The translations under genes and the position numbers were made by a program. Positions 2,924 through 15,438 of a stretch of 18,533 bases of DNA are shown in pieces. The DNA is from a virus (taxonomy: Duplodnaviria > Heunggongvirae > Uroviricota > Caudoviricetes), in IMG/VR virus record IMGVR_UViG_2541047722_000018, positions 1 through 18,533 of that record, one strand, 5' to 3'. The notes under the pieces are model-generated. The model ran no database searches. It was not told the origin of the DNA and saw nothing but the letters and a program-made list of their open reading frames with translations. Within the stretch, counting starts at the first letter, position 1, and each line of letters opens with the position of its first letter.

Positions 2924-3368
2924 GTTTAAGCGTTTTGAAGACCGGCTGACCGGGCTGATTGAATCGCTGTCACCGTCAGGGCGTCGGCGACTGAGTGCCG
3001 AACTGGCGAAACGTCTGCGTCAGAGTCAGCAACGTCGGGTGATGGCACAGAAAGCCCCGGACGGCACACCCTATGCGCCACGCCAGCAGCAGAGCGCCAG
3101 AAAAAAGACCGGTCGTGTTAAGCGAAAAATGTTTGCGAAACTTATCACCAGTCGCTTTTTGCATATCCGCGCCAGCCCGGAACAGGCATCAATGGAGTTT
3201 TACGGCGGAAAGTCACCGAAAATCGCCAGTGTGCATCAGTTCGGTCTGTCGGAAGAAACCCGGAAAGACGGTAAGAAAATTGATTATCCGGCGCGTCCTC
3301 TGCTCGGCTTTACCGGTGAGGATGTGCAGATGATTGAAGAGATTATCCTGGCTCACCTTGACCGTTAG
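2916..3368 (+). CDS. S: Tail completion protein (P2 gpS-like), 150 aa
   Basis: Size and position as P2 S; start ATG overlaps the R stop (ATGAATGA). Confidence 0.8.
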   Translation: MNEFKRFEDRLTGLIESLSPSGRRRLSAELAKRLRQSQQRRVMAQKAPDGTPYAPRQQQSARKKTGRVKRKMFAKLITSRFLHIRASPEQASMEFYGGKSPKIASVHQFGLSEETRKDGKKIDYPARPLLGFTGEDVQMIEEIILAHLDR

Positions 3369-3434
3369 TTGTGCCATTCCCGACACCTCATCGTCACATT
3401 GCCGCCGGTATGACCCGGCGGCATCCTTCCCGTT

Positions 3435-4070
3435 ATGAACACTCTCGCAAATATTCAGGAACTCGCGCGCGCACTGCGCAACATGATTCGCACCGGCGTT
3501 ATCGTCGAAACCGACCTTAACGCCGGTCGCTGCCGTGTGCAGACCGGCGGCATGTGCACCGACTGGCTTCAGTGGCTGACCCATCGCGCCGGGCGTTCGC
3601 GCACATGGTGGGCACCTTCCGTGGGGGAACAGGTGCTGATTCTGGCCGTGGGCGGTGAACTTGACACGGCGTTTGTTCTGCCGGGGATTTATTCCGGTGA
3701 TAACCCCGCGCCGTCTGCGTCGGCGGATGCCCTGCATATCCGTTTCCCTGACGGGGCGGTGATTGAGTATGAACCCGAAACCAGTGCACTCACGGTAAGC
3801 GGAATTAAAACGGCCAGCGTGACGGCTTCTGATTCTGTTACCGCCACGGTGCCGGTGGTCATGGTGAAAGCGTCAACCCGCGTCACCCTGGACACACCGG
3901 AGGTGGTCTGCACCAACAGGCTGATTACTGGCACGCTGGAAGTACAGAAGGGCGGGACGATGCGCGGCAACATTGAACACACCGGTGGTGAACTCTCATC
4001 AAACGGTAAGGTACTGCATACCCATAAACACCCCGGCGACAGCGGCGGCACAACCGGGGGACCTCTATGA
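3435..4070 (+). CDS. V: Baseplate spike/assembly protein (P2 gpV-like), 211 aa
   Basis: First gene after a 66-bp gap, consistent with the start of the V-W-J-I-H-G late operon; size matches P2 gpV. Confidence 0.85.
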   Translation: MNTLANIQELARALRNMIRTGVIVETDLNAGRCRVQTGGMCTDWLQWLTHRAGRSRTWWAPSVGEQVLILAVGGELDTAFVLPGIYSGDNPAPSASADALHIRFPDGAVIEYEPETSALTVSGIKTASVTASDSVTATVPVVMVKASTRVTLDTPEVVCTNRLITGTLEVQKGGTMRGNIEHTGGELSSNGKVLHTHKHPGDSGGTTGGPL

Positions 4071-4414
4071 CTGCGCGTTATCTCGGAATGAATCGCAGTG
4101 ATGGCCTGACTGTCACTGACCTTGAGCATATCAGCCAGAGTATCGGCGATATCCTGCGCACGCCGGTCGGCTCACGGGTGATGCGTCGTGATTACGGTTC
4201 GTTGCTGGCGTCAATGATTGACCAGCCGCAGACCCCGGCGCTTGAGTTGCAGATTAAGGTCGCCTGTTACATGGCGGTGCTGAAATGGGAACCCCGCGTC
4301 ACCCTGTCATCCGTCACCACGGCGCGCAGTTTTGACGGGCGAATGACGGTCACGTTAACCGGTCAGCACAACGACACCGGCCAGCCACTTTCGTTAACCA
4401 TCCCTGTGAGTTGA
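4067..4414 (+). CDS. W: Baseplate wedge protein (P2 gpW-like, T4 gp25 family), 115 aa
   Basis: Overlaps the V stop (ATGA); size and order as P2 W. Confidence 0.85.
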   Translation: MTARYLGMNRSDGLTVTDLEHISQSIGDILRTPVGSRVMRRDYGSLLASMIDQPQTPALELQIKVACYMAVLKWEPRVTLSSVTTARSFDGRMTVTLTGQHNDTGQPLSLTIPVS

Positions 4415-4418
4415 AACC

Positions 4419-5327
4419 ATGCCGATTATCGACCTGAACCAGCTACCCGCACCGGATGTGGTTGAGGAGCTGGACTTTGAAACCATTCTTGCCGAACGCA
4501 AGGCGACACTGATTTCCCTTTACCCGGAAGACCAGCAGGAGGCGGTCGCCCGTACCCTGACGCTGGAATCCGAGCCTCTCGTCAAACTGCTGGAGGAAAA
4601 TGCTTATCGTGAGCTTATCTGGCGTCAGCGTGTGAATGAGGCCGCACGGGCGGTAATGCTGGCCAGTGCCGCCGGTAATGACCTTGATGTGATTGGTGCC
4701 AATTACAATACCACGCGCCTGATTATCACCCCGGCAGATGATTCGACCATCCCGCCGACACCGGCAGTAATGGAATCTGACACTGATTATCGTCTGCGTA
4801 TTCAGCAGGCGTTTGAAGGTTTAAGCGTCGCCGGGTCGGTGGGTGCCTATCAGTATCATGGCCGCAGTGCCGACGGGCGTGTCGCGGATATCTCTGTCAC
4901 CAGTCCGTCTCCGGCCTGTGTCACCATCTCTGTGCTGTCACGTGAAAATAACGGTGTCGCATCCGAAGACCTGCTGGCCGTGGTGCGTAACGCCCTTAAT
5001 GGTGAGGACGTCAGGCCGGTGGCTGACCGTGTGACCGTGCAGTCTGCCGCCATTGTTGAATACCAGATAAACGCCACGCTTTACCTTTACCCTGGTCCCG
5101 AAAGCGAACCCATCCGCGCGGCCGCCGTGAAAAAGCTGGAAGCGTACATCACGGCACAGCACCGGCTGGGGCGCGACATCCGTCTGTCTGCCATTTATGC
5201 CGCTTTGCATGTGGAAGGCGTGCAGCGTGTCGAGCTGGCGGCACCACTGGCCGACATCGTGCTCAACAGTACGCAGGCGTCTTTCTGTACCGAATACCGC
5301 GTCGTGACCGGAGGCTCGGATGAGTGA
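4419..5327 (+). CDS. J: Baseplate protein (P2 gpJ-like), 302 aa
   Basis: Size and order as P2 J. Confidence 0.85.
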   Translation: MPIIDLNQLPAPDVVEELDFETILAERKATLISLYPEDQQEAVARTLTLESEPLVKLLEENAYRELIWRQRVNEAARAVMLASAAGNDLDVIGANYNTTRLIITPADDSTIPPTPAVMESDTDYRLRIQQAFEGLSVAGSVGAYQYHGRSADGRVADISVTSPSPACVTISVLSRENNGVASEDLLAVVRNALNGEDVRPVADRVTVQSAAIVEYQINATLYLYPGPESEPIRAAAVKKLEAYITAQHRLGRDIRLSAIYAALHVEGVQRVELAAPLADIVLNSTQASFCTEYRVVTGGSDE

Positions 5328-5850
5328 TTCGCGACTGCTGCCGACCGGCTCATCACCGCTTGAAGTCGCCGCTGCAAAAGCCTGTGCGGAAATTGAAAAA
5401 ACGCCGGTCAGTATTCGTGAGCTGTGGAACCTGGACACCTGCCCGGCAAATCTGCTGCCGTGGCTGGCGTGGGCGTTTTCGGTCGACAGATGGGATGAAA
5501 AGTGGCCGGAAGCGACCAAACGCGCCGTTATACGCGATGCCTATTTCATCCACTGTCATAAAGGCACTATAGGTGCAATCCGGCGTGTGGTGGAGCCGCT
5601 GGGCTATCTCATCAACGTGACGGAGTGGTGGGAAACCAGTGACCCGCCCGGCACCTTCCGGCTTGATATTGGTGTACTGGAAAGCGGTATCACAGAGGCA
5701 ATGTATCAGGAAATGGAACGGCTGATTGCTGATGCCAAACCTGCAAGCCGTCACCTTATTGGCCTGAACATTATCCAGGACATTCCCGGCTGTCTGTATA
5801 CAGGCGGTGTGGTCTGTGATGGTGATGTTATTACTGTTTATCCCGGATAA
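5320..5850 (+). CDS. I: Baseplate/tail protein (P2 gpI-like), 176 aa
   Basis: Overlaps the J end by 8 nt; size and order as P2 I. Confidence 0.8.
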   Translation: MSDSRLLPTGSSPLEVAAAKACAEIEKTPVSIRELWNLDTCPANLLPWLAWAFSVDRWDEKWPEATKRAVIRDAYFIHCHKGTIGAIRRVVEPLGYLINVTEWWETSDPPGTFRLDIGVLESGITEAMYQEMERLIADAKPASRHLIGLNIIQDIPGCLYTGGVVCDGDVITVYPG

Positions 5851-5860
5851 GTGAGAAACA

Positions 5861-8647
5861 ATGAGCACGAAATTTAAAACCGTTATCACTACTGCCGGAG
5901 CCGCAAAGCTGGCAGCCGCCACTGTCCCCGGCGGGAAAAAAGTAAACCTGTCTGCAATGGCCGTGGGTGACGGTAATGGCAAATTGCCGGTGCCGGATGC
6001 CGGTCAGACGAAACTGGTGCATGAGGTCTGGCGTCACGCTCTGAATAAAGTCAGCGTGGATAACAAGAATAAAAACTATATCGTGGCTGAACTGGTTGTA
6101 CCGCCAGAAGTGGGCGGCTTCTGGATGCGTGAACTTGGTCTGTATGACGATGCCGGAACACTGATTGCGGTATCCAACATGGCAGAAAGCTATAAGCCAG
6201 AACTGGCTGAAGGCTCCGGACGTGCGCAGACCTGCCGCATGGTTATTATTCTCAGCAACGTGGCGTCCGTTGAGCTGAGTATTGATGCCAGCACGGTGAT
6301 GGCGACGCAGGATTACGTCGATGACAAAATCGCAGAGCATGAGCAGTCCCGCCGCCATCCTGACGCCACGCTGACAGAAAAAGGTTTTACTCAGTTAAGC
6401 AGTGCAACAAACAGCACCAGTGAAAAGCTGGCAGCAACGCCAAAGGCAGTAAAAGCAGCCTATGACAATGCTGAAAAACGTATGCAGAAAGACCAGAACG
6501 GTGGCGATATTCCAGATAAGGGCGCTTTTCTGGACAATGTTGGCGTTACCAGCCTGACGTTTATGAAAAACAATGGCGAAATGCCGCTTGATGCTGATCT
6601 GAATACATTTGGTCCCGTTAAGGCTTATCTGGGGATCTGGTCTAAAGCTACCTCAACTAACGCAACACTGGAGAAAAATTTTCCGGAAGATAATGCTGTC
6701 GGTGTGCTTGAGGTTTTTGCTGCCGGCAATTTTGCAGGTACGCAACGCTTCACCACGAGAGACGGCAATGTATACATACGCAGACTCGCCAATAAGTGGA
6801 ATGGCTCTGATGGTCCGTGGGGCATATGGCGTCACACTCAATCAGCTACCCGCCCTTTGAGTACGACTATAGACCTGAATACGCTTGGAGCCGCCGAACA
6901 TCTTGGTTTATGGCGTAACAGTAGCTCGGCTATAGCTTCATATGAACGCAATTATCCAGAGGAAGGCGGCTTTGCTCAGGGGATGCTTGAGATCCTCGAA
7001 GGCGGGAATTATGGAAGAACGCAACGTTATACCACTCGCCGTGGAAATATGTATGTCCGCTGCCTTGCGGCAAGCTGGGATGTATCAAATCCGCAGTGGG
7101 AACCGTGGTTAAGAGTCGGTCATCAGTCAGAGAGTCGTTATTACGAAGGTGATTTAAATGTTCTAACCGACCCCGGTATTTACAGTGTTACAGGAAAGGC
7201 AACAAACGGTCCGATGCTGGACACCGTTGGCGCGACACTACTTGGGATACTGGAAGTAATCAGACGTTTTGATGGTGTGTCTGTCTGGCAGCGTTACACA
7301 ACCACAGGGAAATCAGAAACCACACAGGGACGCACTTTTGAGCGCGTCTACGCCGGGAGCAAATGGACCGAATGGCGAGAAGTATATAACTCCTTTTCGT
7401 TGCCTCTGAATCTGGGCATCGGTGGCGCAGTGGCAAAACTATCCAGTCTGGACTGGCAGACCTACGATTTTGTGCCGGGCAGTCTGATAACCGTGCGGCT
7501 TGATAACATGACCAACATTCCCGACGGTATGGACTGGGGCGTCATTGATGGCAACCTGATAAACATCGCAGTTGGTCCGAGTGATGATTCCGGTACGGGA
7601 CGCTCAATGCATGTATGGCGAAGCACTGTAAGTAAAGCCAACTACCGCTTTTTTATGGTGCGCGTTTCAGGAAATCCGGGAAGCCGCACGATTACAACAA
7701 GACGAGTACCAATCATTGACGAAGCCCAGACATGGGGCGCGAAACAGACATTCAGTGCTGGCCTTTCTGGTGAACTGTTCGGCAATGCTGCGACAGCAAC
7801 AAAGCTGAAAACAGCCCGTAAAATTAATAACGTTTCGTTTGATGGAACATCAGATATTAACCTGACGCCTGAAGATATTGGTGCATTGCCAATAACGGGA
7901 GGAACTCTTACCGGCGGTTTAACTGCTGCTGGCGAGATTATTTCCAAATCGGCGAATGGTCTTCGTATTGCCTATGGCAACTATGGATTCTTTATCCGAA
8001 ACGATGGTTCAAGCACATACCTCATGTTGACCAATTCGGGCGACAGCCTGGGAACATGGAATAGTTTAAGGCCGCTTACCATTAATAACGCCAGTGGAGC
8101 TGTTTCTATCGGTAATAGTTTAACTGTTAATGGTGATATAGGAACCAATGCTTGGGTATATGCAAATCGTTTTGCAATTAATAGCAGTACCGGAATGTGG
8201 ATAAATATGCGTGACCAGAATGTTATTTTTGGACGTAATGCGGTATCCACCGATGGTGCTCAGGCATTGTTACGTCAGGACCATGCTGATCGCAAATTTA
8301 TGATTGGTGGTCTGGGGAATAAGCAATTTGGCATCTACATGATTAATAATTCAAGGACAGCCAATGGCACCGATGGTCAGGCGTACATGGATAATAACGG
8401 GAATTGGCTTTGCGGTGCGCAAGTTATTCCCGGCAATTATGGTAATTTTGACTCACGCTATGTGAGAGATGTCAGACTTGGCACACGTGTTGTTCAGACC
8501 ATGCAAAAAGGCGTGATGTATGAAAAATCAGGTCATGTAATCACGGGGCTTGGTATTGTCGGTGAAGTCGATGGTGATGACCCCGCAGTATTCAGACCAA
8601 TACAAAAATACATCAATGGCACATGGTATAACGTCGCACAGGTGTAA
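5861..8647 (+). CDS. H: Tail fibre protein (P2 gpH-like N-terminus, divergent repeat-containing distal region), 928 aa
   Basis: N-terminus MSTKFKTVITTAGAAKLAAA... is the conserved P2-type fibre anchor. It is longer than the 669 aa I recall for P2 H. It has three tandem ~92-aa repeats, a GGTLTGGL motif common in enterobacterial phage fibres, and a visibly more AT-rich distal part. Confidence 0.85.
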   Translation: MSTKFKTVITTAGAAKLAAATVPGGKKVNLSAMAVGDGNGKLPVPDAGQTKLVHEVWRHALNKVSVDNKNKNYIVAELVVPPEVGGFWMRELGLYDDAGTLIAVSNMAESYKPELAEGSGRAQTCRMVIILSNVASVELSIDASTVMATQDYVDDKIAEHEQSRRHPDATLTEKGFTQLSSATNSTSEKLAATPKAVKAAYDNAEKRMQKDQNGGDIPDKGAFLDNVGVTSLTFMKNNGEMPLDADLNTFGPVKAYLGIWSKATSTNATLEKNFPEDNAVGVLEVFAAGNFAGTQRFTTRDGNVYIRRLANKWNGSDGPWGIWRHTQSATRPLSTTIDLNTLGAAEHLGLWRNSSSAIASYERNYPEEGGFAQGMLEILEGGNYGRTQRYTTRRGNMYVRCLAASWDVSNPQWEPWLRVGHQSESRYYEGDLNVLTDPGIYSVTGKATNGPMLDTVGATLLGILEVIRRFDGVSVWQRYTTTGKSETTQGRTFERVYAGSKWTEWREVYNSFSLPLNLGIGGAVAKLSSLDWQTYDFVPGSLITVRLDNMTNIPDGMDWGVIDGNLINIAVGPSDDSGTGRSMHVWRSTVSKANYRFFMVRVSGNPGSRTITTRRVPIIDEAQTWGAKQTFSAGLSGELFGNAATATKLKTARKINNVSFDGTSDINLTPEDIGALPITGGTLTGGLTAAGEIISKSANGLRIAYGNYGFFIRNDGSSTYLMLTNSGDSLGTWNSLRPLTINNASGAVSIGNSLTVNGDIGTNAWVYANRFAINSSTGMWINMRDQNVIFGRNAVSTDGAQALLRQDHADRKFMIGGLGNKQFGIYMINNSRTANGTDGQAYMDNNGNWLCGAQVIPGNYGNFDSRYVRDVRLGTRVVQTMQKGVMYEKSGHVITGLGIVGEVDGDDPAVFRPIQKYINGTWYNVAQV
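6599..7385 (+). repeat. Three tandem ~92-aa (276-279 nt) protein-level repeats inside tail fibre H
   Basis: Repeat units start at 6599, 6875 and 7154, each beginning with an LNT/LNV motif and sharing an ...L(E)VxxxGN(F/Y)xxTQR(F/Y)TTRxGNxYxRxLAxxW... core. Confidence 0.6.
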
Positions 8648-8650
8648 TTT

Positions 8651-9178
8651 ATGCAGCATTTAAAAAATATTACTGCGGGTAATCCAAAAACTGTTGCCCA
8701 ATATCAACTGACAAAAAATTTTGATGTTATCTGGTTATGGTCCGAAGAGGGAAAAAACTGGTATGAGGAAGTAAGTAATTTTCAGGAAGACACGATAAAG
8801 ATTGTTTACGACGAGAATAATATAATTGTCGGCATCACCAGAGATGCTTCAACGCTCAACCCTGAAGGTTTTAGCGTTGTCGAGGTTCCTGATATTACCG
8901 CCAACCGACGTGCTGATGACTCAGGTAAATGGATGTTTAAGGATGGTGCCGTGATTAAGCGGATTTATACGGCAGACGAACAGCAACAACAGGCAGAATC
9001 ACAAAAGGCCGCGTTACTTTCCGAAACCGAATCCGTGATTTTGCCGCTGGAGCGCGCTGTCAGGCTGAATATGGCAACAGATGAGGAGCGCAGTCGACTG
9101 GAAGCATGGGAACGCTACAGCGTTCTGGTCAGTCGTGTGGATCCTGCAAATCCTGAATGGCCGGAAATGCCGCAATAA
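8651..9178 (+). CDS. G: Tail fibre assembly protein / chaperone (P2 gpG, Tfa family), 175 aa
   Basis: Directly after H; size as P2 G; AT-rich like the distal part of H; ends ...[12 protein letters not shown]. Confidence 0.8.
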
Positions 9179-9331
9179 GTTGTATGAGCTCTGGTGGGAG
9201 CTTACATATCTATGGCACAGAGTAAAGCCTAATCTGACAGTCCGCTCTGTGCTAGGAGCGGACATTGTTGCCATCTATCTGCATAAATCTGTGGGGAGCT
9301 GCTCACTTGTGGGGAATGAGTCCTCAACTGT

Positions 9332-9360
9332 TTGCGTTTATAAACACAATCCTTTAGATT
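9332..9360 (+). promoter_or_regulatory. Candidate sigma70 promoter for the cargo ORF
   Basis: TTGCGT (9332-9337), 17-nt spacer, TAGATT (9355-9360), about 30 nt upstream of the cargo start; each hexamer matches consensus at 4/6 only. Confidence 0.3.
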
Positions 9361-9390
9361 CTCTCCTACTATCTACTAAAATTTTATCTA

Positions 9391-10518
9391 GTGAAAATGC
9401 CCAATAATCATATGTATGCAAGTCTACTGTCTTACAAAAACTTAAAGATGGCACATCAAGGAAGTAACTTACGGTCTATTACTGAGTTTTCTCTCTATTC
9501 AGATAGTCAACCAATTGGGGCGGTTGATGATGATTCAGTTTATTGTTTTCTGAATATGTTACCCAGGATAACCAAACAATCCACCGTTGCATCTTCAATT
9601 ACAGTGCGCACAAAGTGGTATAGTGACTTAAATAATATGATTCTTTCTAGTTCTCAGAGTCATACAAAGGATTATCATGGTGGATGGTATAATGATGAAA
9701 TAGCTGCGCTTTCAAGTTTACTGCTTGGTGTCCGTTTTCATGCTGGGTCAATTACTCGTCACTATGATTACTACACAGGTGATTTCGGAAGGATCCAAGC
9801 GGAGAGTTCTTTTCCTCCCGTTTTAGAGTTTAAACATAACAAACCTATAGTTCCTAATGCTATCAAAGAAATTGATATAACTAACCTTAAAGAGCTTAAC
9901 AATTTACATCTCTTAAGTGAAAAGAATTTCAACCATTTAATTAGAGCAGCCAGAAGCTATCAAAATGCATTATGGATATGCGAGTCATCTCCAAATATGA
10001 GTTGGCTATTGATGGTGTCAGCCCTAGAATGTGCGGCTAATCAATGGGCAAAATCCAATGCGTCTAAAGAAGAAAGATTTAAACATGCCAAGCCTGAATT
10101 ATATGAAAAATTAGATACCAATGAATTTAGACATTTAATCTCTATTATTGCTAATGAGTTTAAAGATTCATTTGGGGCGACAAAGAAGTTTGTGGATTTC
10201 TGCCTGTATTTCCTTCCAGATGAACCTCAAGTGAGGCCAAAAGTAGGAAGAATTGATTGGGGAAAAGAATCGCTATCAACAACTTTTAAAAAAATATATA
10301 ACTACCGTTCTAAGGCATTGCATGGAGGACAACCATTTCCTGAGCCGATGTGTTCCTATCCTGAAGTATGGGATGGGTATATTGCTGAACGAGCGAGAGC
10401 ATGTTCAACCTTAGGTGGAACGTGGTTGAATGAAGATGTGCCAATTAATTTAAATACATTCAACTTTATGACCCATTCCATTTTGAATAAGTGGTGGCAA
10501 TCTTTATTACCAAGTTAA
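9391..10518 (+). CDS. Hypothetical protein, cargo gene at the G/FI variable locus; candidate anti-phage defence protein (possible C-terminal HEPN-like R-x4-H motif), up to 375 aa
   Basis: Single long ORF in an AT-rich island: hand count 20/60 G+C at its 5' end versus 33/60 at the start of FI. Start uncertain (GTG 9391, ATG 9397 or downstream ATGs; no strong SD). No transmembrane segments or P-loop seen. Occupies the P2 Z/fun position. Confidence 0.6.
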   Translation: MKMPNNHMYASLLSYKNLKMAHQGSNLRSITEFSLYSDSQPIGAVDDDSVYCFLNMLPRITKQSTVASSITVRTKWYSDLNNMILSSSQSHTKDYHGGWYNDEIAALSSLLLGVRFHAGSITRHYDYYTGDFGRIQAESSFPPVLEFKHNKPIVPNAIKEIDITNLKELNNLHLLSEKNFNHLIRAARSYQNALWICESSPNMSWLLMVSALECAANQWAKSNASKEERFKHAKPELYEKLDTNEFRHLISIIANEFKDSFGATKKFVDFCLYFLPDEPQVRPKVGRIDWGKESLSTTFKKIYNYRSKALHGGQPFPEPMCSYPEVWDGYIAERARACSTLGGTWLNEDVPINLNTFNFMTHSILNKWWQSLLPS

Positions 10519-10540
10519 CACTGTAAGTATCAGTGTTAAC
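10514..10540. repeat. Perfect 10-bp inverted repeat overlapping the cargo stop codon
   Basis: GTTAACACTG (10514-10523), 7-nt spacer, CAGTGTTAAC (10531-10540). Confidence 0.6.
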
Positions 10541-10609
10541 TGCACCATGTAATTTTATATCTGTACCAGACTGGAGGAAAATGTTCGCTTATCGCTCATT
10601 AGGGTCAAC

Positions 10610-10648
10610 CATACTCAAATCTCTCACATTGCAGGAGATTTGAGTATG
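10610..10648. repeat. Perfect 14-bp inverted repeat with 11-nt spacer
   Basis: CATACTCAAATCTC (10610-10623), spacer tcacattgcag, GAGATTTGAGTATG (10635-10648). Confidence 0.6.
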
Positions 10649-10671
10649 AACACGTCACCGTGGAAGGACTG

Positions 10672-10694
10672 GCGGGCGAATTGCCCGCTTTTTT
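10672..10694 (+). terminator. Rho-independent terminator downstream of the cargo ORF
   Basis: GCGGGC-gaatt-GCCCGC stem-loop followed by TTTTTT on the + strand. Confidence 0.6.
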
Positions 10695-10792
10695 GTATCT
10701 GTTGTTTCATCCACTGACCAGCCAGGTCAAATAGCGTCTCATGCTCTGCACAACAGAAAATAGTTGCACCCATTAACCACGGAGTTAAACGG

Positions 10793-11983
10793 ATGAGTGA
10801 CTATCATCACGGCGTGCAGGTGCTGGAGATTAACGACGGCACCCGCGTCATTTCCACCGTATCCACCGCCATTGTTGGCATGGTCTGCACGGCCAGCGAT
10901 GCGGATGCGGAAACCTTCCCCGTCAATAAACCGGTGCTGATCACCAATGTGCAGAGCGCGATTGCAAAGGCCGGTAAAAAAGGTACGCTGGCGGCATCGT
11001 TGCAGGCCATCGCTGACCAGTCAAAACCGGTCACCGTTGTCGTGCGCGTGGAAGACGGCACCGGCGACGACGAAGAAACGAAACTCGCGCAGACCGTTTC
11101 CAATATCATCGGCACCACTGACGAAAACGGTCAGTACACCGGACTGAAAGCCCTGATGGGCGCAGAGTCGGTTACCGGCGTTAAACCGCGCATTCTCGGC
11201 GTACCGGGACTGGACACCAAAGAGGTGGCGGTTGCACTGGCATCGGTATGCCAGGAACTGAATGCCTTCGGGTATATCAGCGCATGGGGCTGTAAAACCA
11301 TTTCCGAGGCAAAAGCCTACCGTCAGAATTTCAGTCAGCGTGAGCTGATGGTCATCTGGCCGGATTTCCTTGCATGGGATACGGTCACCAGTACCACCGC
11401 CACCGCGTATGCCACCGCCCGTGCGCTGGGGCTGCGTGCCAAAATCGACCAGGAGCAGGGCTGGCATAAAACGCTGTCCAACGTCGGGGTAAACGGTGTT
11501 ACCGGCATCAGCGCATCTGTATTCTGGGATTTGCAGAAGTCTGGCACTGATGCTGACCTGCTGAACGAGGCAGGCGTCACAACGCTGGTTCGCCGCGACG
11601 GTTTCCGTTTCTGGGGTAACCGTACCTGCTCCGATGACCCACTTTTCCTCTTTGAAAGCTACACACGTACCGCGCAGGTACTGGCCGACACGATGGCTGA
11701 GGCGCACATGTGGGCTATTGATAAGCCCATCACCGCAACGCTGATTCGCGACATCATTGATGGCATCAATGCCAAATTCCGCGAACTGAAAAACAACGGT
11801 TATATCGTGGATGGCACATGCTGGTTCAGTGAAGAAGCCAACGATGCGGAAACCCTCAAGGCCGGAAAACTGTATATCGACTACGACTATACACCGGTGC
11901 CTCCTCTCGAAAACCTGACCCTGCGCCAGCGTATTACTTCAAGATACCTGGCAAGTCTGGTCACCTCGGTTAACAGCAATTAA
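10793..11983 (+). CDS. FI: Contractile tail sheath protein (P2 gpFI-like), 396 aa
   Basis: GGAG RBS before the ATG; size and order as P2 FI; first gene of the FI-FII-E-T-U-D operon. Confidence 0.9.
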   Translation: MSDYHHGVQVLEINDGTRVISTVSTAIVGMVCTASDADAETFPVNKPVLITNVQSAIAKAGKKGTLAASLQAIADQSKPVTVVVRVEDGTGDDEETKLAQTVSNIIGTTDENGQYTGLKALMGAESVTGVKPRILGVPGLDTKEVAVALASVCQELNAFGYISAWGCKTISEAKAYRQNFSQRELMVIWPDFLAWDTVTSTTATAYATARALGLRAKIDQEQGWHKTLSNVGVNGVTGISASVFWDLQKSGTDADLLNEAGVTTLVRRDGFRFWGNRTCSDDPLFLFESYTRTAQVLADTMAEAHMWAIDKPITATLIRDIIDGINAKFRELKNNGYIVDGTCWFSEEANDAETLKAGKLYIDYDYTPVPPLENLTLRQRITSRYLASLVTSVNSN

Positions 11984-12998: not shown

Positions 12999-15438
12999 CA
13001 ATGTAAAATTACAGGTATTGCTCAGGGCTGTTGACCAGGCATCCCGCCCGTTTAAATCCATCCGCACAGCGAGTAAGTCGCTGTCGGGGGATATCCGGGA
13101 AACACAAAAATCACTGCGCGAGCTGAACGGTCACGCATCCCGTATTGAGGGATTCCGCAAGACCAGTGCACAGCTCGCCGTGACTGGTCATGCACTTGAA
13201 AAGGCACGGCAGGAAGCCGAAGCCCTTGCCACACAGTTTAAAAACACCGAACGTCCGACCCGTGCTCAGGCGAAAGTGCTGGAATCCGCAAAGCGTGCGG
13301 CGGAGGACTTACAGGCGAAATATAACCACCTGACGGATTCCGTTAAACGCCAGCAACGGGAACTGGCCGTTGTGGGAATTAATACCCGCAATCTTGCACA
13401 TGATGAGCAGGGACTGAAAAACCGTATCAGTGAAACCACCGCACAACTTAACCGTCAGCGTGACGCGCTGGCGCGTGTCAGTACGCAACAGGCAAAACTT
13501 AACGCAGTAAAACAGCGTTATCAGGCCGGAAAGGAACTGGCCGGAAATATGGCCTCGGTAGGCGCTGCCGGTGTGGGGATTGCGGCGGCGGGAACGATGG
13601 CCGGAGTTAAGCTGCTGATGCCCGGTTATGAGTTTGCGCAGAAAAACTCAGAATTGCAGGCCGTGCTAGGAGTGGCAAAAGACTCCGCCGAAATGGCCGC
13701 GCTACGCAAACAGGCGCGCCAGCTCGGCGACAACACAGCCGCCTCGGCGGATGATGCAGCAGCAGCTCAAATCATCGTGGCTAAATCAGGAGCGGATAAA
13801 AATGGCATCTTGGCACAAACACCGGCCATTTTGAATATGTCACTGGCAAACAAGAAAACGATGGAGGAAAACGCCACTTTACTTATTGGGACAAAATCGG
13901 CATTCGGGCTTGCTGATGATAAGGCTTCCCATATTGCTGATGTTATTTCAATGACGATGAATAAATCGCAAGCCACATTCGAGGGACTAAGTGATTCACT
14001 TACCTATGTCGGGCCAGTGGCAAAAGATGCAGGTGTCAGCTTGGAAGAAACAGCAGCAATGTTAGGTGCATTACACGATGCAAATATCAGTGGGTCTATG
14101 GCTGGCACAGGAAGTCGAGCAGTACTGAGTCGTTTGCAGGCACCAACCGGGAAAGCGTATGACGCTATTAAAGAGCTTGGCGTAAAGACAACTGACAGCA
14201 AAGGTAATACGCGACCTGTCTTTTCAATTCTGAAAGAAATTCAGCGGAGTTTTGAAAAAAATAAACTAGGAACAGGGCAGCGCGCTGAATACATGAAAAC
14301 AATATTCGGCGAAGAGGCCAGCTCATCAGCAAGTGTATTAATGACAGCAGCAGCCAGCGGCAAGCTGGATAATCTGACCAGGTTGATTAAAGAATCTGAC
14401 GGTAAAACAGAAGAACTGGTTAAGGTTATGCAGGACAACCTCGGCGGTGACTTTAAGGAGTTTCAGTCCGCTTATGAGGCGGTGGGGACTGACCTGTTTG
14501 ACCAGCAGGAAGGCGCACTGCGTAAGCTCACGCAGACGGCCACAAATTATGTGTTAAAACTCGACGGCTGGATCCAGAAAAACAAATCACTGGCGTCAAC
14601 CATCGGCATCATTGCCGGTGGCGCGCTGGCGCTGACTGGCATCATCGGTGCCATTGGTCTTGTCGCCTGGCCGGTTATCACCGGCATCAATGCCATCATC
14701 GCGGCAGCAGGCGCAATGGGGGCAATCTTCACGACGGTTGGCAGTGCCGTTATGACGGCCATCGGGGCGATTAGCTGGCCGGTTGTGGCCGTGGTGGCCG
14801 CCATTGTCGCCGGGGCGTTGCTTATCCGTAAATACTGGGAGCCTGTCAGCGCATTCTTTGGCGGTGTGGTTGAAGGGCTTAAAGCGGCATTTGCGCCGGT
14901 GGGGGAACTGTTCACGCCACTTAAACCGGTTTTTGACTGGCTGGGGGAAAAGTTACAGGCCGCGTGGCAGTGGTTTAAAAATCTGATTGCCCCGGTCAAA
15001 GCCACCCAGGACACCCTGAACCGTTGCCGTGACACGGGGGTCATGTTCGGGCAGGCACTGGCTGACGCGCTGATGCTGCCGCTTAATGCGTTCAACAAAC
15101 TGCGCAGCGGCATTGACTGGGTACTGGAAAAACTCGGTGTTATCAACAAAGAGTCAGACACACTTGACCAGACCGCCGCCAGAACTCAAGCCGCCACGTA
15201 TGGCAGCGGTGGTTATATTCCGGCGACCAGCTCTTATGCAGGCTATCAGGCTTATCAGCCGGTCACGGCACCGGCTGGCCGCTCTTATGTAGACCAGAGT
15301 AAAAACGAATATCACATCAGCCTGACGGGTGGTACTGCGCCGGGGACACAGCTTGACCGCCAGTTACAGGATGCGCTCGAAAAATACGAGCGGGATAAAC
15401 GTGCGCGCGCCCGTGCCAGCATGATGCATGACGGTTAA
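12991..15438 (+). CDS. T: Tail tape measure protein (P2 gpT-like), 815 aa
   Basis: Large alpha-helical protein with a central Gly/Ala-rich hydrophobic segment; size and order as P2 T. Confidence 0.85.
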   Translation: MSNNVKLQVLLRAVDQASRPFKSIRTASKSLSGDIRETQKSLRELNGHASRIEGFRKTSAQLAVTGHALEKARQEAEALATQFKNTERPTRAQAKVLESAKRAAEDLQAKYNHLTDSVKRQQRELAVVGINTRNLAHDEQGLKNRISETTAQLNRQRDALARVSTQQAKLNAVKQRYQAGKELAGNMASVGAAGVGIAAAGTMAGVKLLMPGYEFAQKNSELQAVLGVAKDSAEMAALRKQARQLGDNTAASADDAAAAQIIVAKSGADKNGILAQTPAILNMSLANKKTMEENATLLIGTKSAFGLADDKASHIADVISMTMNKSQATFEGLSDSLTYVGPVAKDAGVSLEETAAMLGALHDANISGSMAGTGSRAVLSRLQAPTGKAYDAIKELGVKTTDSKGNTRPVFSILKEIQRSFEKNKLGTGQRAEYMKTIFGEEASSSASVLMTAAASGKLDNLTRLIKESDGKTEELVKVMQDNLGGDFKEFQSAYEAVGTDLFDQQEGALRKLTQTATNYVLKLDGWIQKNKSLASTIGIIAGGALALTGIIGAIGLVAWPVITGINAIIAAAGAMGAIFTTVGSAVMTAIGAISWPVVAVVAAIVAGALLIRKYWEPVSAFFGGVVEGLKAAFAPVGELFTPLKPVFDWLGEKLQAAWQWFKNLIAPVKATQDTLNRCRDTGVMFGQALADALMLPLNAFNKLRSGIDWVLEKLGVINKESDTLDQTAARTQAATYGSGGYIPATSSYAGYQAYQPVTAPAGRSYVDQSKNEYHISLTGGTAPGTQLDRQLQDALEKYERDKRARARASMMHDG

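Follow-up and report, generated by a model that had tools for sequence, protein, structure and literature searches.

The inverted repeat at positions 10610-10648 of the window, by which we mean the whole stretch of 18,533 nucleotides analysed here, belongs to the 5' end of a small tyrosine recombinase gene. Only 6–7 codons of this gene survive before the backbone of a P2-like phage follows, so the repeat is the translation-initiation region of a decapitated gene. We read it as a recombinase-leader stem-loop that would bury the ribosome-binding site and the start codon, and in the window as a remnant of that structure, most likely a fossil; we give this reading a probability of about 70%.

The inverted repeat and the recombinase gene behind it

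The window comes from a P2-like (Peduovirus) phage or prophage, of which it represents the late region. According to the list of open reading frames (ORFs), gene H (5861-8647) and gene G are followed by a variable stretch of 1.6 kb, then by FI and the remaining tail operon, and the same order is annotated in Wphi, L-413C, P22H1 and pro147. Gene G is the last backbone gene ahead of the variable region, at the position of Z/fun in P2. The variable stretch is richer in AT than the P2 backbone and contains one long ORF, here referred to as the cargo. The features of this part of the window are as follows.

8651-9178, plus strand: G, the P2-type tail-fibre assembly gene (ORF; flank annotated as G or tail fiber assembly in Wphi, L-413C, P22H1 and pro147)
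9397-10518, plus strand: cargo ORF, an uncharacterised protein of 373 amino acids (ATG at 9397; a GTG at 9391 is also possible)
10610-10648, plus strand: the reported inverted repeat (15-pair RNA stem of 10610-10624 with 10634-10648, 9-nt loop)
10646-10665, plus strand: start of the recombinase gene, 6–7 codons (MNTSPW-), from alignment with WP_001305361.1 in locus L001
10665-10666, no strand: deletion junction between recombinase remnant and P2 backbone (recombinase homology ends at 10665; homology to Wphi, P2, L-413C and others runs from ~10665)
10671-10694, plus strand: intrinsic-terminator-like hairpin with T-run, part of the P2 backbone upstream of FI (terminator scan; stem 10671-10689)
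10793-11983, plus strand: FI, the P2 tail sheath gene, where the backbone resumes (ORF and annotations)

The arms of the repeat, CATACTCAAATCTC (10610-10623) and GAGATTTGAGTATG (10635-10648), are perfectly complementary over 14 bp and lie 11 nt apart, just as an earlier note on this DNA described them, and they form the longest short-range inverted repeat of the window. That note also held the repeat to be longer than chance would give, and in fact a perfect repeat of at least 14 bp with a loop of at most 30 nt was present in 1 of 200 shuffled versions of the full 18.5-kb window that preserved dinucleotide composition (mean 0.005). In the RNA, a U.G pair between T10624 and G10634 extends the stem to 15 pairs. 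The energy of this stem is -19.0 kcal/mol; the intact consensus, with C at the position of T10624, reaches -21.0 kcal/mol. Folding of the 83-nt segment gave z = -3.6, while a 200-nt region contains three independent strong hairpins (z = -4.3). An Rfam 15 scan of 9000-11000 (E up to 10) gave nothing at the repeat and two chance-level matches elsewhere (E = 2.8 and 3.7).

The stem is indeed AT-rich and without a following T-tract, with 5 of 15 pairs being G-C and AACACGTC coming next. The repeat was also considered as a Rho-independent terminator and rejected, as the stem is not GC-rich and has no U-tract and the scan reports only the backbone terminator with its stem at 10671-10689. This terminator-like stem does start shortly downstream, 22 nt from the repeat, but it had been assigned to the cargo, and this assignment did not hold: the terminator belongs to the backbone because the homology to P2-like phages with other cargo resumes at ~10665. 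In P2-like phages with unrelated cargo a terminator lies at the matching position. A second perfect inverted repeat, AGTTAACACTG / CAGTGTTAACT (10513-10541, plus strand; 11 bp, 7-nt loop), overlaps the stop codon of the cargo and is the second-longest short-range repeat in the window.

Positions 10583-10665 of the window are 92-96% identical to the 5' end of a module of ~710 bp. In a BLAST search against 5426 complete E. coli genomes, 10582-10665 matched chromosomes at 94-96% identity, upstream of and into genes annotated as 'site-specific integrase'. A 101-nt leader query matched 918 of these genomes (~17%), and 628 plasmid records as well (Klebsiella including virulence plasmids, Pantoea, Salmonella and others), so the repeat is conserved elsewhere, the point on which the earlier note had wanted a check; the module as such is spread over Gamma- and Betaproteobacteria. 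In E. coli clone D i14 (locus L001), a 200-aa ORF starts at the ATG that closes the right arm of the repeat, with AGGAG 8 nt upstream; this ORF is the recombinase WP_001305361.1 (4054-4656). The corresponding Shine-Dalgarno (SD) sequence AGGAG of the window lies at 10633-10637, with GGAG (10634-10637) paired within the right arm, and the start codon ATG (10646-10648) is wholly inside this arm; the earlier note mentions neither. The remnant frame stays open across the terminator until a TGA at 10715-10717; the resulting product of 23 aa is probably meaningless.

The encoded protein of ~200 aa is a tyrosine recombinase and essentially the catalytic domain alone (PF00589, E = 5e-19), with the expected catalytic residues R51, K79, H148, R151, H174 and Y183 invariant. 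More than 8000 protein clusters match it, and identity is at least 76% from Escherichia to Idiomarina and Pseudoalteromonas. It stays far under the curated cut-offs for XerC, XerD, integron integrases and FimB/FimE.

Among 14 enterobacterial loci, conservation sets in abruptly at ~65 nt before the ATG and ends at ~45 nt past the stop, while the flanks are unrelated and the gene upstream of the module varies from locus to locus. From left to right the module consists of a palindromic site of type B (described below), a 63-nt leader, the recombinase gene, a GC-rich hairpin and a site of type A. The leader hairpin begins 27 nt inside the left end. The 63-nt leader has no sigma-70 consensus promoter, which fits expression by transcription entering from outside. 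The motif CCATNCT was considered as a -10 promoter element and dropped in favour of the pairing of its CAT with the AUG; no consensus promoter was found.

Two side observations concern the module. Directly after the recombinase stop (e.g. L001 4660-4680) stands the conserved GC-rich hairpin CAGGGCTGC-aaca-GCAGCCCTG, which has no T-run and overlaps the left part of the A-type site; it may be a terminator-like element or belong to the site. In Edaphovirga cremea (L012), two modules are located 2.7 kb apart (1185-1230 and 3916-3961); the second recombinase gene is a pseudogene containing in-frame stops, whereas the hairpin ahead of it is still intact and shows a G.U-compatible change.

Family-wide conservation and compensation of the leader helix

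The intact enterobacterial stem is a perfect 15 bp (CATACTCAAATCTCC/GGAGATTTGAGTATG), from which the window differs by the one C-to-T change that creates the U.G pair. In the mRNA this stem would pair the GGAG of the gene with an anti-SD CTCC, and its AUG with a CAT, so a transcript carrying the whole leader would keep the ribosome-binding site shut. A stem of about -21 kcal/mol that holds SD and AUG should strongly inhibit initiation. As it would nearly abolish initiation, some way of opening would be needed if the recombinase is ever made. The likely purpose would be to keep recombinase synthesis very low and insulated from read-through out of the upstream cassette, which seems to us the most economical reading. 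That the structure forms in the mRNA and represses translation is what the sequence comparisons below suggest.

We fetched 80 loci with recombinases 61-97% identical to the query and folded the region from -70 to +12 of each. Most of these leaders fold with the SD paired, and their stem sequences and loops are quite different, for example GTCCTCC/GGAGGAC in Pseudomonas, or TCAGACTCC/GGAGTCTGA, TTGAACTCC/GGAGTTCAA and AATTCCTT/AAGGAATT in Betaproteobacteria. An upstream CAT complementary to the AUG is conserved family-wide. An exact CTCC anti-SD lies 3-25 nt upstream of GGAG in 44 of 82 leaders, and the test that follows is anchored on CTCC...GGAG only. Among 36 unique arm pairs, the first three positions outward of this anchor are paired in 92, 75 and 72% of cases, each of them by several types of pair. 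Pairing overall is 0.559, whereas shuffled partners give 0.41 ± 0.025, and none of 1000 shuffles came up to the observed level. Moreover, among 16 close relatives four pairs have changed on both sides, and their covariation of 0.141 against 0.095 was reached in 0 of 500 shuffles. A betaproteobacterial subgroup (e.g. L031, L038, L054, L063) is without the upstream anti-SD and has a different small hairpin, GAUGG-GAGA-CCAUC, around the SD.

Three other approaches were set aside. First, MAFFT placed the SD wrongly when 20 diverse leaders were aligned, so that RNAalifold predicted no pairs, and the CTCC/GGAG-anchored test was used instead. Second, a covariance model built from 16 close leaders, the window itself included, gave the window 59.9 bits; it recovered close relatives only and matched the antisense strand too, and could therefore not extend the alignment to distant homologues. 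Third, the pairing probability of the SD discriminates poorly (mean of 0.69 for controls with shuffled upstream sequence), since a purine-rich SD pairs with almost anything.

These tests bear on whether the palindrome acts instead at the DNA level, as an operator bound by the recombinase or a host factor, or as an accessory or core recombination site. Its symmetry is perfect, and it lies 3 nt from the type B site, the presumed place of recombinase binding. Neither the wobble nor the strand tests favour RNA: within the helices, 10 G.U pairs stand against 10 A.C mismatches with no strand signal, and the antisense strand equals or surpasses the sense strand in folding, so wobble pairs alone cannot tell an RNA hairpin from a DNA palindrome. 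In L014 (2961-3006), the 9-nt loop is exactly inverted (tgcaatgtg, not cacattgca) with the same stem, a palindrome-mediated small inversion that took place at the DNA level. However, the arm sequence, the arm length (5-17 bp) and the spacer (3-25 nt) vary greatly among recombinases that are 61-97% identical, and the sole constant is complementarity to SD and ATG. It is this variation of stem and loop beside a conserved protein that disfavours the operator proposed earlier. Core sites of tyrosine recombinases usually have a spacer of 6-8 bp, and the spacer of 9-11 bp and arms of 14-15 bp found here are unlike that geometry. The repeat was thus rejected as a core site, its arms not being family-conserved and all mapped recombination joints lying in 8-8-8 sites of the GTCCGC type and never in the repeat. 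We consider a DNA-level site clearly improbable. Variable arms and spacers next to a highly conserved protein argue for self-complementarity centred on SD and AUG as the property that is kept.

Palindromic sites, cassettes and the history of the cargo

The recombination-like sites are 24-bp palindromes of 8-8-8 design with arms GTCCGCTC/GAGCGGAC and two types of spacer, A (TGTGCCAG) and B (TTCGCTCA), and they bracket single-gene cassettes. Those in the window, and the copies used for comparison, are listed below.

9240-9263, plus strand: type A recombination-like site GTCCGCTC TGTGCTAG GAGCGGAC (exact inverted arms of 8 bp around an 8-bp spacer), which bounds the cargo cassette on the left
10583-10606, plus strand: type B site GTTCGCTT ATCGCTCA TTAGGGTC, which bounds the cargo cassette on the right and forms the left end of the recombinase module
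Sites in L001: 2489-2512, 4681-4698, 5701-5724, 6715-6780
Sites in L089: 2494-2517, 3520-3585

In intact modules the type B consensus is GTCCGCTT TTCGCTCA TAAGGGAC, and enterobacterial conservation starts exactly there; the right, type A end reads TGTGCCAG followed by an AGCGGAC arm. The A site of the window shares its architecture and the flank TAATCTGACA with the attL-like copy at 2489-2512 of L001 and with the single site of L089. The latter is an empty E. coli locus with one A site, GTCCGCTC TGTGCCAG ATGCGGAC, while in the occupied locus L001 A-type copies flank an insert of 2170 bp that comprises one cargo gene and the recombinase module. A second insert of L001, 991 bp long, lies between two B-type copies. 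An empty site set against an occupied one with the core duplicated at both junctions is what the proposed site-specific integrative cassette calls for, and this is the arrangement found here. From linkage and site geometry, the linked recombinase may catalyse the events at these sites; short-homology recombination between the repeats of 9-23 bp, by other means, could produce them as well. A spread sample of 50 of the 937 matching E. coli records contained 0 rows with the pattern expected of module inversion between inverted end sites.

Several further observations were made on the sites. A composite of ~66 bp, consisting of a B site, 18 nt and an A site, occurs in several species (L001 6715-6780, L002 6552-6617, L010 2277-2342, L084 4534-4599, L089 3520-3585), and it looks like an enzyme-less platform because the recombinase gene fills the same B-to-A interval in other loci. 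The arm pattern recurs with one mismatch in the tape-measure gene of the window (14466-14489, GTCCGCTT ATGAGGCG GTGGGGAC), probably by chance. The neighbours of the module or its remnants are often of defence type (L002, L084, L090, L104, L102), namely a SIR2 operon, AbiGi, an anti-phage dGTPase, a putative Abi protein and PIN_12.

A 2004 paper by Nilsson et al. (Mol Biol Evol 21:1-13) on the P2 Z region reportedly invokes site-specific recombination in its title. GenBank AJ512685 annotates a 'left' and a 'right inverted repeat' at the P2 Z/fun locus between G and FI; in P2-EC67, the annotated left repeat contains a type A site and the right one a decayed type B site. Other P2-like phages likewise keep the A site on the left, with the B site on the right decayed to varying degree. 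The P2 backbone to the right of the B site was tried as a decayed recombinase leader and rejected, its score of 26 against 18.7 ± 4.9 for shuffles not being significant. The later hotspot papers searched make no mention of a recombinase at the P2 G/FI locus (Rousset et al. 2022, PMC9122126; PMC13586616).

The cargo protein had no match in Pfam, PADLOC, NCBIfam or PDB sequence searches. It has an R-x4-H motif, of which R304 and H309 are invariant in 12 homologues, and UniRef names one homologue 'Apea-like HEPN domain-containing protein'; we take a HEPN-like nature from motif and name as a lead only. Homologues also occur as cassettes in P2-like prophages beside a PIN_12 cassette (L102), and in Pantoea, where similar sites flank them (L098).

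The cargo has a close counterpart in Enterobacter hormaechei and relatives (L104-L109, ~3342-6700), where a chromosomal array contains an A site, the cargo (97% protein identity to that of the window), an AbiGi cassette and an intact 200-aa recombinase. Its copy of window 9235-10590, which covers A site, cargo and 3' flank, is 95% identical, and the repeat at 10513-10541 falls in this stretch and is thus part of the cargo cassette. The recombinase module of the array is 92.5% identical to window 10586-10665. The window equals the L104 array minus the 1302-bp AbiGi cassette, with the joint inside a shared arm GT(C/T)CGCTT. This is the left arm of the B site, as homology of the cargo flank to L104 ends at 10590 and that of the module starts at 10586. 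On the other side, the homology to L104 and L105 begins at the A site, and the DNA to its left differs in all three contexts.

The simplest history would have two steps. First, cargo and recombinase module would have entered the A site of P2 together. Second, a later deletion from codon 7 of the recombinase to just before the P2 terminator would have taken the enzyme, the right-hand site and any earlier content. Deposited P2-like phages contain no intact close homologue of the recombinase, the best matches being less than 60% identical and in unrelated records. An independent stump, L090, has kept 17 codons with the ATG changed to GTG. With the recombinase gene deleted, the hairpin would have nothing left to regulate; most likely it is a fossil from the arrival of the cargo in the phage, and probably without function there.

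The remnant is barely decayed, with one change in 39 nt, which may reflect a recent origin only and is also compatible with a retained role. Such a role could lie in the cargo mRNA, if the hairpin had been taken over as a 3'-UTR element that serves, together with the P2 terminator, as a barrier to 3' exonucleases or a processing site. It does stand on the cargo strand between the cargo stop (10518) and the terminator stem (10671-10689), and the three strong hairpins of the 200-nt region would suit such a role. Phages with this locus include vB_YpM_22 and vB_EcoM-720R8. The hairpin is kept in every record with this cargo, 8 from phages and 5 from E. coli genomes, at 99.6% identity or more; these records are near-identical and so count as one lineage, giving no independent evidence of retention by selection. 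Moreover, P2-like phages with other cargo use the same terminator without such a hairpin, and in L104, which has the chromosomal copy of the cargo, the 3' flank is immediately followed by another hairpin than this one (GTCCGCTTTGAAAAAGCGGAC). We regard recruitment by the cargo mRNA as unlikely. Of the 3'-UTR hairpin proposed in the earlier note, the physical position and the RNA nature, which is the most plausible one, are retained, but the element is the initiation region of the recombinase and not a feature of the cargo gene.

That the element controls toxicity of the cargo, as an operator or as a small regulatory or antitoxin-like RNA, is barely credible. It adjoins a possibly HEPN-like and potentially toxic gene, which is what would make such control attractive. 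Elsewhere, however, the element accompanies unrelated genes (SIR2, AbiGi, a dynamin-like GTPase locus, dGTPase, LysR), and where the same cargo stands in a chromosomal array, another cassette intervenes and the distance is 1.3 kb. Nor did we find an Rfam match or a promoter-like site on either strand around the repeat, and the antitoxin-like RNA suggested before was abandoned; the distribution of the element largely refutes cargo control. The fossil of the recombinase leader remains our preferred reading.

Relation to known systems and meaning

The read-through mRNAs of the IS10/Tn10 and IS50 transposases are said to fold back and pair the ribosome-binding site, in the work of Davis, Simons and Kleckner of 1985 and in reviews by Chandler. 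The likeness is close: the SD and AUG of a recombination enzyme are paired with sequence just inside the end of the element, which would be expected to shield the gene from external transcription and to keep the enzyme very scarce. In our case a tyrosine recombinase takes the place of the DDE transposase, no internal promoter bypassing the 5' arm was found, and repression is a prediction from sequence. The hairpin itself is thus a further example of a familiar regulatory device, present in the window as a remnant.

As a whole, the system of sites and recombinase resembles integrons and the pdif modules of Acinetobacter but falls outside both. With integrons (IntI, attI, attC) it shares a tyrosine recombinase beside arrays of mostly single-gene cassettes with short imperfect palindromes between them, and cassette-sized insertions and deletions end at palindromic sites here too. 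It differs in the recombinase of ~200 aa, which reaches 15.9 bits against a cut-off of 265 for the integron-integrase model TIGR02249, and in the 24-bp 8-8-8 palindromes with two spacer types in place of attC; cassettes stand in either orientation and no common promoter is evident. In pdif modules, gene modules are flanked by inverted XerC/XerD sites, and recombinase-mediated cassette exchange uses heterospecific lox sites. Similarly, the two sites that flank the cargo here are related but differ in their spacers, which are of type A (TGTGCCAG) at the left and of type B (TTCGCTCA) at the right, and with this layout at the P2 G/FI hotspot the exchange of whole modules between platforms would be possible. 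In contrast to pdif, a dedicated small recombinase is linked to the sites in place of the XerC/XerD of the host; its scores are 49.6 bits for XerC (cut-off 335) and 32.1 for XerD (cut-off 330), the arms GTCCGCTC are unrelated to dif, and the geometry is not the 11-6-11 of dif. The small tyrosine invertases FimB and FimE are alike in having ~200 aa, essentially the catalytic region only, and in acting on short inverted repeats, but the match is weak, with 25.5 bits (cut-off 222) and 18.2 bits (cut-off 221), and the inversion pattern was missing from the sample of E. coli records described above. The P2 Z/fun locus corresponds in genome position, between G and FI.

Taken together, and tentatively, since we think it somewhat less probable than its opposite, a ~200-aa recombinase silenced by its own SD/AUG hairpin may move single-gene, often defence-type cassettes between 8-8-8 sites of types A and B. 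Such sites are present in enterobacterial chromosomes, on plasmids and at the P2 G/FI (Z/fun) hotspot, and cassette exchange among them would explain how the hotspot is loaded and its content swapped; in the window we would be looking at one such delivery, made permanent afterwards when the recombinase was deleted. In the literature that we could search (without Nilsson et al. 2004), we found no description of a cassette-exchange system with a small tyrosine recombinase and integron-like defence cassettes.

The repeat itself, as a fossil regulatory hairpin, is of little weight, and the interest lies in its context. The cargo of a P2-like phage arrived as part of a recombinase-linked cassette array, and in Enterobacter the recombinase beside this cargo is intact. 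For the Z/fun locus of P2, long known as variable, a particular pair of palindromic sites and a candidate enzyme can thereby be named. This enzyme belongs to a very widespread group of small tyrosine recombinases annotated no further than 'site-specific integrase' and often found near anti-phage genes (SIR2, AbiGi, dGTPase, PIN). If the recombinase acts on these sites, it would provide a testable mechanism for the turnover of defence genes in a phage hotspot, which has so far been mainly an observed pattern.
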